This document shows, piece after piece, positions 26,312-52,330 of a stretch of DNA of 64,000 bases (the stretch's first letter is position 1; every line of letters starts with the position of its first letter). The notes beneath the pieces were generated by a model. The model did no database searches. It had not been told where the DNA came from and worked only from the letters and a program-made list of their open reading frames with translations. The DNA comes from Escherichia coli (GTDB lineage: Bacteria; Pseudomonadota; Gammaproteobacteria; Enterobacterales; Enterobacteriaceae), in NCBI RefSeq assembly GCF_044324875.1, contig NZ_CP172185.1, one strand, 5' to 3'. The position numbers were made by a program, and so were the translations under genes.

Positions 26312-27496
26312 TTAACTTTCCCGGCTGGAGAGTGAATCAATGTAATCAGCGTACCATTGCATCATTTCACGGCGGCCATCGAGATACAGGGCATGATTAT
26401 AGGTACCCCTGATGGAATTTTTATCCACATGAGCTAACTGCATTTCAATCCAGGCGGAATTAAAGCCTTGTTCATGCAGAATTGTACTCATGGTGTGTCT
26501 GAAACCGTGCCCTGTGAGTCTTCCCTTATATCCAAGTAATTCAATTACTTGGTTAATGCTTTCCTTACTAATTGGTTTGCGGGGATCATTTCTACCGATA
26601 AAGACTAGGGGATGATGTTTTGAGATTGGTTCAAGCTGCTTAAATAGCATAATGACCTGCTCAGAGAGCGGCACAATATGAGGTCGCTTCATCTTCATTA
26701 CTTCTGCCGGGATCTCCCACAATTTTGTCTCAAAATCGATATCTTCCCAGCGTGCAAAACGCAGTTCTTGTGTTCGTACGCCGGTTAACATAATGATCTG
26801 AGTAGCTGTCTTAGTGATTATACTTCCGGTATAACCCGCCAGATCGTTGAGGAAGTGGGGAAGTTCATTAGCAGTAAGAAAGGGAAAATGTACTTTTTTC
26901 GGTGTAGCTAAAGCACTGGCAAGATCGGGGGCTGGGTTATAGTCTGCCCGGCCAGTAACAATTGCATAGCGGAACACCTCACCACAGCGCTGGCGGACCT
27001 TGCGCATTTTCTCCAGAGCTCCACGTTTTTCCATTTTACGCAGTGCTTCCAGTAACTCCATTGGTTTGATTTCGGCAATAGGGCGCTTGCCAATGTAGGG
27101 AAAAATGTCTTTTTCAAAGGTATCAATGATTTCATCACGATAGCGTAATGACCACCGATCGGCTTTTGACTGGTGCCATTCGCGAGCAATAGCCTCGAAC
27201 GTATTTTGCAGACTCATTTGCTGCGCGATTTTTTCTTCCTTTTTTGCCTCCCCTGGATCGCCTCCAGCAGCGAGGAGTTTCCTGGCTTCACTGCGTTTCT
27301 CGCGAGCATCGGCTAGCGTTACATCGGGGTATACGCCAATAGAAAGCATCTTTTCTTTACCAGCAAAGCGGTACTTCATGCGCCAGTATTTAGAACCATT
27401 AGTGTTAATCAGTAGATACATACCGCCGCCATCAGCAAGCTTATAGGGTTTGTCTTTGGGTTTTGCGGTTTTCACTTTGATATCGGTTAATGCCAT
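26312..27496 (-). CDS. int: P4-type tyrosine integrase (island integrase)
   Basis: 394 aa; N-terminal MALTDIKVKTAKPKDKPYKLADGGGMYLLI... typical of P4-family integrases; C-terminal catalytic region with H-x-x-R and Tyr; about 300 bp from the tRNA-Sec 3' end. Confidence 0.9.
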   Translation of the reverse strand: MALTDIKVKTAKPKDKPYKLADGGGMYLLINTNGSKYWRMKYRFAGKEKMLSIGVYPDVTLADAREKRSEARKLLAAGGDPGEAKKEEKIAQQMSLQNTFEAIAREWHQSKADRWSLRYRDEIIDTFEKDIFPYIGKRPIAEIKPMELLEALRKMEKRGALEKMRKVRQRCGEVFRYAIVTGRADYNPAPDLASALATPKKVHFPFLTANELPHFLNDLAGYTGSIITKTATQIIMLTGVRTQELRFARWEDIDFETKLWEIPAEVMKMKRPHIVPLSEQVIMLFKQLEPISKHHPLVFIGRNDPRKPISKESINQVIELLGYKGRLTGHGFRHTMSTILHEQGFNSAWIEMQLAHVDKNSIRGTYNHALYLDGRREMMQWYADYIDSLSSRES

Positions 27497-27795
27497 GACA
27501 TCCTCCGGCTTTTGATGAATTCATGTTCCTGAGGGGGATTTCTGCCAGTAACTAACCTGATACCCCCAATACACCCCTTGTATAACAAAGATGTTGTTAA
27601 AAGCCGTTGTTATATATCATATTTTTCCTATTATGGGGGTGCTGGTATTTCAATAGGAAATAACACCCCCTAAAGTACCCCCAAAAGAAACTTGATACGG
27701 GGTGAAGTAGGTTGACCTCTGGATACAAATAAATACTGATATACAAGGGATTAGAAGAGATTTATTGACATTGGGAGAGTTCAGAAGAGGTAAAC

Positions 27796-27890
27796 TGGCG
27801 GAAGATCACAGGAGTCGAACCTGCCCGGGACCGCTGGCGGCCCCAACTGGATTTGAAGTCCAGCCGCCTCACCGGAGACGACGATCTTCC
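27796..27890 (-). tRNA. selC: tRNA-Sec (selenocysteine), anticodon UCA
   Basis: Minus-strand sequence GGAAGATCGTCGTCTCCGGTGAGGCGGCTGGACTTCAAATCCAGTTGGGGCCGCCAGCGGTCCCGGGCAGGTTCGACTCCTGTGATCTTCCGCCA matches E. coli selC; long variable arm. Confidence 0.95.
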
Positions 27891-28182
27891 GCGCCTCGAT
27901 TGCTACATGGAGGCGGGGCGCATTATAGCTACTTCCTTGAGTTTCTACATCCCCCAGATCAGTTTTTTCCGCCTAATACACGCAGCGTATTATCACGGAA
28001 GCATTATAATTCATATAAAACCCATATTTTACAATGATATATGAGCGGAATTAACGCTACCACGATCACATAAAACAAGAATCATAAATTAATAACCAGA
28101 TATCGGAATATTCGCTCTCACAGGGATGGTTTACAAAATGCGTTATCGGTCTCAGCACCCCTATAGCATCAAGGAAAAGCAG

Positions 28183-49941: not shown

Positions 49942-52330
<2,389 letters not shown>

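Follow-up and report, generated by a model that had tools for sequence, protein, structure and literature searches.

The locus described here lies within a 64-kb stretch of Escherichia coli DNA (the window) and is composed of the tRNA gene selC, a gene for a P4-family tyrosine integrase, and the spacer that separates the two (27497-27795, 299 bp, 39% G+C). The integrase gene adjoins the tRNA-Sec gene's 3' end and is read in the same orientation, on the minus strand, as is found for P4-family attachment sites. The 3' part of selC is the core side of attL. The same spacer is found in ~1,300 complete E. coli genomes. The features of the locus, from the tRNA gene toward the integrase gene, are listed below.

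27796-27890, minus strand: selC (tRNA-Sec), the integration target (ARAGORN; Rfam RF01852, 83.8 bits)
27804-27819, minus strand: core/crossover segment TTCGACTCCTGTGATC, 16 bp of selC, a pattern that occurs once in the window
27691-27716, minus strand: three pentamers, GTCAAC, TTCACC, and ATCAAG, with 10-11 bp phasing, just upstream of P'1
27676-27684, minus strand: P'1, direct repeat 1 of module A, TTGGGGGTA, 6/7 columns invariant
27664-27672, minus strand: P'2, direct repeat 2 of module A, TAGGGGGTG, 12 bp after P'1
27633-27641, plus strand: P'3, inverted copy of module A, ATGGGGGTG, 6/7 columns invariant
27583-27602, minus strand: IHF-site segment, TTTAACAACATCTTTGTTAT, a 20-mer identical to that of PAI I-536 (primers MC125 versus MC124)
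27571-27579, minus strand: direct copy 1 of module B, AAGGGGTGT, equal to the 5' end of primer MC124 (Chitto et al.)
27561-27569, minus strand: direct copy 2 of module B, TTGGGGGTA, 11 bp after copy 1 and identical to P'1
27531-27539, plus strand: degenerate inverted copy of module B, GAGGGGGAT (ATCCCCCTC on the integrase strand), mean conservation 0.74
26312-27496, minus strand: P4-family tyrosine integrase, 394 aa (Pfam PF13356, PF22022, and PF00589)

A cluster of C-rich motifs between the integrase gene and selC had been reported in a sequence-only reading of this DNA, and the cluster was found to be real. The pattern ACCCCC/GGGGGT occurs 16 times on the two strands of the 64-kb window, and four of these copies are inside the 299-bp spacer, where 0.075 would be expected (Poisson P ~1e-6). 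No second stretch of 299 bp with four copies was found within the window. When the spacer was shuffled with its dinucleotides preserved, 0.14% of the shuffles reached four copies. On the integrase strand, the motif reads as the heptamer GGGGGTR, with the wider form WWGGGGGTR, and the copies fall into two groups, module A (27633-27684) and module B (27561-27579).

The positions given in the earlier reading required some revision. Two of the four direct copies are exactly where they had been placed, TACCCCC at 27561-27567 and ACACCCC at 27571-27577. The coordinates of the other two were displaced by ~11 bp. The stretch at 27652-27659, listed as a copy, reads AATAGGAA, and the true third copy is ACACCCCC at 27663-27670; the copy listed at 27665-27671 overlaps this third copy, and the true fourth copy is TACCCCC at 27676-27682. 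The description of the set as four equivalent direct copies is replaced here by a canonical triple and an extra pair, and the degenerate inverted copy at 27531-27539 is an addition to the list. The inverted GGGGTG has two matches. The match at 27636-27641, within ATGGGGGTG, is conserved, whereas that at 27699-27704 is not. The latter was dropped as a candidate arm site; most of the relatives have GGGTTG at this position, and it falls within the middle pentamer of the TTCAMC repeat family. Spacers of the 243-bp and 209-bp classes do have a perfect ACCCCC close to this position.

In many loci, pentamers of the type TCAAC, TCAAT, or TCAAG were also observed at constant distances from the tRNA end, at ~28 and then as a phased triple at ~81, ~91, and ~101. 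A further pentamer of the TCAAC family is found in the window at 27764-27768. In other lineages, the pentamer co-varies and appears as GTCTAC or TCCAT (loci L008-L087). The TCAAC-type pentamers are a separate repeat family and are possibly sites for an excisionase (Vis/AlpA-type) or for IHF.

Conservation of the sites and the far ends of the islands

Relatives of the locus were collected by using one genome per species, and this provided 80 loci with integrases that are 58-100% identical. The integrase gene is beside selC in 29 of the 80 loci; the others are beside tRNA-Arg, Ser, Thr, Gly, Phe, or Asn, or have no tRNA gene in range. The junctions were searched for a triple consisting of two direct heptamers 10-14 bp apart and a downstream inverted copy. 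The triple was found in 81 of 82 junctions (the 80 loci, phage P4, and the window) and in 20% of the shuffled spacers. All three copies vary in step, as GGGGGCA/TGCCCCC, GGGGGTR/YACCCCC, TGTATAG/CTATACA, or GTGTATA/TATACAC, and this is true even within the set of integrases that have selC as their target.

In the window, P'1 starts 111 nt past the 3' end of selC, and P'3, which reads CACCCCCAT on the integrase strand, is ~30 nt beyond P'2. In 59 loci, the first direct repeat was placed either 112-116 or 122-125 nt from the tRNA end, and the longer class is one helical turn beyond the shorter. The distance from the triple to the ATG is variable (39-186 nt). Since the distance to the tRNA is constant and the distance to the ATG is not, the triple is anchored to the tRNA and the core rather than to the gene. 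This tRNA-anchored spacing is what an intasome of fixed geometry predicts.

Conservation within the spacer class of the window was measured in an alignment of 14 spacers of 289-300 bp, which come from E. coli variants (including strain 536) and 8 other named genera. The aligned loci from outside E. coli are from Photorhabdus, Trabulsiella, Yokenella, Pseudocitrobacter, Yersinia, Lelliottia, and two unclassified Enterobacteriaceae; one metagenome-assembled genome among the sources is unclassified. In these 14 spacers, 79% of the columns in the five main sites are invariant, compared with 38% elsewhere (permutation p ~0.001), and no other columns of the spacer are as well conserved as those of the motifs. 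The sites are retained in three of the 14 loci even though the tRNA-proximal segment has been replaced there. The direct pair of module B is an extra pair that was seen in the 289- to 300-bp spacer class. Its inverted copy is weakly conserved and has been deleted in strain 536.

Two other loci were noted during this comparison. In E. coli O145:H28 RM13514 (L005 1400-1800), there is a spacer copy whose motifs have decayed, accompanied by a truncated 3' fragment of selC. This copy adjoins an IS3 remnant and the LEE gene espF, has no adjacent integrase gene or full tRNA gene, and looks like the relic of a tandem or secondary insertion. In Kluyvera georgiana (L022), two tRNA-Sec genes that have similar upstream segments are 386 bp apart, and the first is a diverged 93-nt copy. 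The segment at L022 1765-2338 was considered as an att remnant and was dropped, being a duplicated selC with its own upstream region.

If the heptamers are arm sites, a direct pair is expected ~62 nt before the far-end copy of the core. Because no far att site was found for the island in the window, this prediction was tested on the islands of strains Nissle and 536. The integrase strand at the far end of PAI I-536, ~77 kb from int, contains GGGGGTtcttatGGGGGTt, in which the second run of G residues begins 61 nt ahead of TTCGACTCCTGTGATC, the 16-bp repeat of the selC 3' end. The selC island of Nissle (19.5 kb) has the same GGGGGTtcttatGGGGGTt pair, 61 nt before a 15-mer repeat of selC. The far-end pairs in these two islands agree with the prediction and cannot be explained by linkage. 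In E. coli 536, a truncated and frameshifted second integrase pseudogene was also observed directly downstream of intI (L093 49445-49878).

The island of the window is ~39 kb and ends, beyond the start of the window, at a copy of IS1A that abuts yicS (NZ_CP025851.1 2465093-2466287; L090 17094-18288). A search of the window and of 49 kb beyond L001, a stretch that takes in the far end, gave neither a repeat of selC nor a P-arm pair. The sole other match to the selC 3' end in the window is at 51695, with 3 mismatches, on the side away from the island. None of the genes setC, yicL, and nlpA is annotated at the island end beside yicS. The island has probably lost its far att site and with it the ability to excise precisely, though int is intact. 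The window thus probably holds attL as the surviving half of a decayed and immobilized element, and the sites in this island may serve only in regulation or may be relics. The cargo (window ~1-26000; L001 1-19600; L090 1-9200) is made up of sugar-utilization genes, which include two GH32 enzymes, two OmpG-family porins, a GH31 enzyme, MFS transporters, LacI regulators, and a kinase. The cargo is broken up by IS66, IS21, IS1, and IS3 elements, and McrBC is found further out.

Arm-site motifs and the integrase N-terminal domain

The integrase begins with a match to the Pfam domain Arm-DNA-bind_3 (PF13356; DUF4102) at residues 3-88 (2.8e-30), which is followed by the central and catalytic domains. 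The N-terminal 91 residues align to PDB entry 3JU0 at 4e-32, and 3JU0, 3JTZ, and 3RMP are the top hits. In the AlphaFold model, residues 1-93 have a mean pLDDT of 90 and superpose on these three structures with an rmsd of 0.6-1.1 Angstrom. The title of 3RMP refers to "recognition of attP substrates by P4-like integrases". In global alignments, the integrase of the window is 94.2% identical to IntI of PAI I-536, 95.2% identical to the selC integrase of O157:H7, and 95.4% identical to that of Nissle 1917. It is 44.7% identical to P4 Int (tblastn).

The type of motif in the spacer was found to track the N-terminal domain of the integrase, and not the tRNA target or the C-terminal domains. The G5 motifs are paired with KYWR(M/L)KYR and the TATA motifs with K(G/A)WR(F/Y)RY. 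Residue 50 is M, L, or V in all 20 of the distinct GGGGGT-type sequences and R or K in all 30 of the distinct GGGGGC-type sequences, and it is the only column of the alignment that separates the two types completely. In the window, residue 50 is a methionine (in KEKML; codon at ~27347-27349), and the model of the domain places it in the final beta strand. From these alignments, base 6 of the arm site may be read by residue 50, which would specify C when it is R or K and T when it is M, L, or V.

In a tree constructed from residue 101 onward, the motif types are interleaved among C-terminal parts that are nearly identical. Pairs of loci with near-identical C-termini and different arm domains and motifs are L014/L017, L018/L021, L027/L029, L070/L076, and L043/L058. 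This interleaving indicates that the arm domain and its sites have been exchanged repeatedly as a unit. The arm sites are 50-350 bp from the codons of the N-terminal domain, and thus the co-variation could partly reflect co-transfer during recombination rather than functional coupling.

Module B and regulation of the integrase gene

The literature searched contains no binding experiment that pairs this integrase with these heptamers. The work of Chitto et al. on PAI I-536 (2020, PMC7286903) bears on module B. IntI was reported to strongly repress its own promoter, and IHF was reported to bind a site upstream of intI in electrophoretic mobility shift assays. Removal of the IHF site resulted in more promoter firing and more loss of the island. 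The primer table of that paper (PMC7286903) places the IHF site within TTTAACAACATCTTTGTTAT, and the IHF-deleted fragments start at AGGGGTGTATTGGGGTATCA, which is module B. The repressed construct pMC5 starts at the IHF site (TTTAACAACATC) and is without module A and with module B, and it is still tightly repressed. The constructs from strain 536 place the promoter and the operator within ~100 bp of the ATG, which is where module B is located. Neither integrase binding sites nor arm sites are mentioned by Chitto et al., and arm sites are not discussed in the paper on the ICEKp1 promoter.

A natural deletion in the spacer is found in E. coli O157:H7 (JEONG-1266, L006), where the selC spacer is 195 bp. 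By comparison with L004 and with 27571-27684 of the window, a deletion of 105 bp has occurred between the GGGGTGCATT sequences in the first sites of modules A and B, and what remains is a single hybrid pair, still at the canonical distance to selC. Autorepression by the O157 integrase, IntL, is 4-fold only and was seen only upon induction.

A consensus scan of 27300-28000 identified no promoter for int on the integrase strand and no terminator, and a manual search for -35 and -10 elements around both modules gave only weak, unconserved matches. From the repression experiments in strain 536 and the position of the sites, we infer that module B is most likely the operator for integrase autorepression. 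With this candidate assignment the roles would be split, such that module A would function in recombination and module B in autorepression.

Interpretation and comparison with known systems

We think it most likely that the spacer is the integrase-proximal P' arm of the attL of a P4-family genomic island inserted at selC and that the GGGGGTR heptamers are arm-type sites for the Arm-DNA-bind_3 domain of the integrase. The sequence-only reading had suggested arm-type sites, and this suggestion is supported by the conservation of the motifs, by a layout like that of P4, and by an integrase with the appropriate N-terminal domain. A lack of conservation in homologous integrase-tRNA junctions would have counted against arm sites, and the alignments gave the opposite result. 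Physical contact between the integrase and the heptamers would be predicted from indirect evidence, namely the co-variation with residues of the N-terminal domain and the genetics of strain 536.

In the mechanism that we propose, the integrase would be heterobivalent. The C-terminal domains would bind and cut the core within the 3' end of selC while the N-terminal domains would hold the arm sites of module A. Host proteins that bend DNA, such as IHF, would fold the segment between the core and the arm sites. The resulting intasome would be needed for integration; excision would require it as well, along with the pair in the P arm at the far end. Module B is a second, partly degenerate copy beside the IHF site, just upstream of the start of int, and most likely serves as the operator by which the integrase represses its own gene.

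Other explanations for the heptamers were considered. A chance or compositional origin, in which the C-runs have no function, gains something from the shortness of the motif and from the match at 27699-27704, which is indeed coincidental, but its probability is negligible given the frequencies obtained (Poisson P ~1e-6 and shuffle P 0.0014), the conservation of the sites across genera despite flanks that diverge or have been replaced, and their fixed position relative to the tRNA. The conserved element might instead be a hairpin of RNA or single-stranded DNA in the int leader that acts as an attenuator or in translational control. Complementarity between direct repeat 2 and the inverted copy is seen in every lineage, the two are paired in the minimum-energy fold, the inverted copy abuts the start codon in relatives with short spacers, and premature termination and post-transcriptional control have reportedly been found for P4 int. 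However, the folding energy is no better than that of shuffled sequences (z of -0.7 and -1.0), the Rfam search matched tRNA-Sec only, and in the window the hairpin would be ~140 nt upstream of the ribosome binding site. A hairpin would also leave unexplained the first direct copy at 12-bp phasing, the anchoring to the tRNA, and the pair at the far end, and we regard this possibility as very unlikely.

It is somewhat easier to envision that the heptamers are bound by a different protein, either an excisionase of the Vis/AlpA type or a nucleoid or host protein, although this too is unlikely. Phased direct repeats in att arms are also targets of excisionases, and the promoter of P4 int, Pint, is said to be repressed by Vis as well as by Int. 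An excisionase gene would be inherited with the island lineage, and therefore the co-variation alone does not discriminate between the two proteins. The P4 record, however, labels these repeats as att arm repeats, and in several backgrounds the type of motif tracks a single class of residue, located in a beta strand of the integrase arm domain. The phased TCAAC-type family is already at the position expected for excisionase or IHF sites, and IntI by itself is enough to repress a fragment in which module B is the only module.

The assignment of the heptamers as integrase arm sites allows a more speculative proposal, to which we would give less than an even chance: that in this selC lineage the set of arm sites has been duplicated into two modules with separate jobs, and that the reading of base 6 by residue 50 constitutes a specificity code. 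The core-phased module would then serve in the assembly of the intasome and the IHF-adjacent module in autorepression. If this is correct, regulation of the integrase would be reset when the two modules recombine, as in O157:H7, and the code at residue 50 would enable the arm sites to be predicted from the protein and P4-family integrases to be re-targeted.

Likely integrase sites are now mapped at base resolution for the selC islands, including PAI I-536 and the island of the LEE-associated integrase of O157:H7. Published work had established autorepression and the IHF site, with the positions of integrase binding unmapped. The site map provides targets for experiments on the stability and loss of these islands, and the co-variation provides a rule for finding arm sites beside any P4-type integrase.

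The closest precedent for module A is phage P4. Arm repeats have reportedly been described for the attP site of this phage. In the P4 record (X51522), six features are annotated as 'attP arm sequence repeat'. The P' arm has two adjacent direct 12-mers, TTGGGGGCATAA and TTGGGGGCATCT, which start 112 nt past the core, and the P arm has two adjacent direct 12-mers, AGTGGGGGCACA and AAAGGGGGCATA, the second G-run of which is 62 nt before the 20-bp core. One inverted arm repeat is just before the start of int and one copy is inside int. In a second P4 record, the -10 element of Pint, CATAAT, coincides with the junction of the two P' direct repeats. Module A and the P4 P' arm have the same number of sites, the same orientation, the same 12-bp phasing, and the same distance from the core, and in both cases an inverted copy precedes int; the inverted arm repeat of P4 (L088 889-900) is the counterpart of P'3 in the window. 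The repeats, WKGGGGGCAYA in P4 and WWGGGGGTR in the window, share the G5 core and differ at position 6, which is C in P4 and T in the window. Intermediate lineages have GGGGGCA at selC. The two systems differ in their targets (leuX for P4 and selC for the window) and in the distance of the triple from the ATG, which is 8-50 nt in P4 and 145-188 nt in the window. The spacer of the window has 137 extra bp that carry the second pair, and the copy inside P4 int has no counterpart in the window.

PAI I-536 also resembles the window, with a spacer of the same class of layout (289 bp), modules A and B, and an identical 20-mer at the IHF site. It differs in that it keeps the far att site and excises, whereas the island of the window is without that site, and in that strain 536 is without the inverted copy of module B, of which the window has a degenerate one. 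The domains by which the HPI and HAI7 integrases bind arm-type sites (3JTZ, 3JU0, and 3RMP) are like that of the integrase in the window when compared at the protein level, but the islands have other tRNA targets. The P'1-P'3 sites of lambda Int and the P' sites of KplE1 IntS are also comparable in that a heterobivalent integrase uses arm sites that lie between the core and int in attL. Negative autoregulation has been described for intS of KplE1, where the tRNA gene precedes int in the same orientation (PMC2951348). The arm-binding fold and the motif of lambda and KplE1 are unrelated to those of the window, and the likeness is in mechanism only. Judged from the sequence comparisons, the sites in the window are most likely the selC-lineage (GGGGGTR) version of the P4-type arm repeats and would thus belong to a textbook kind of element.
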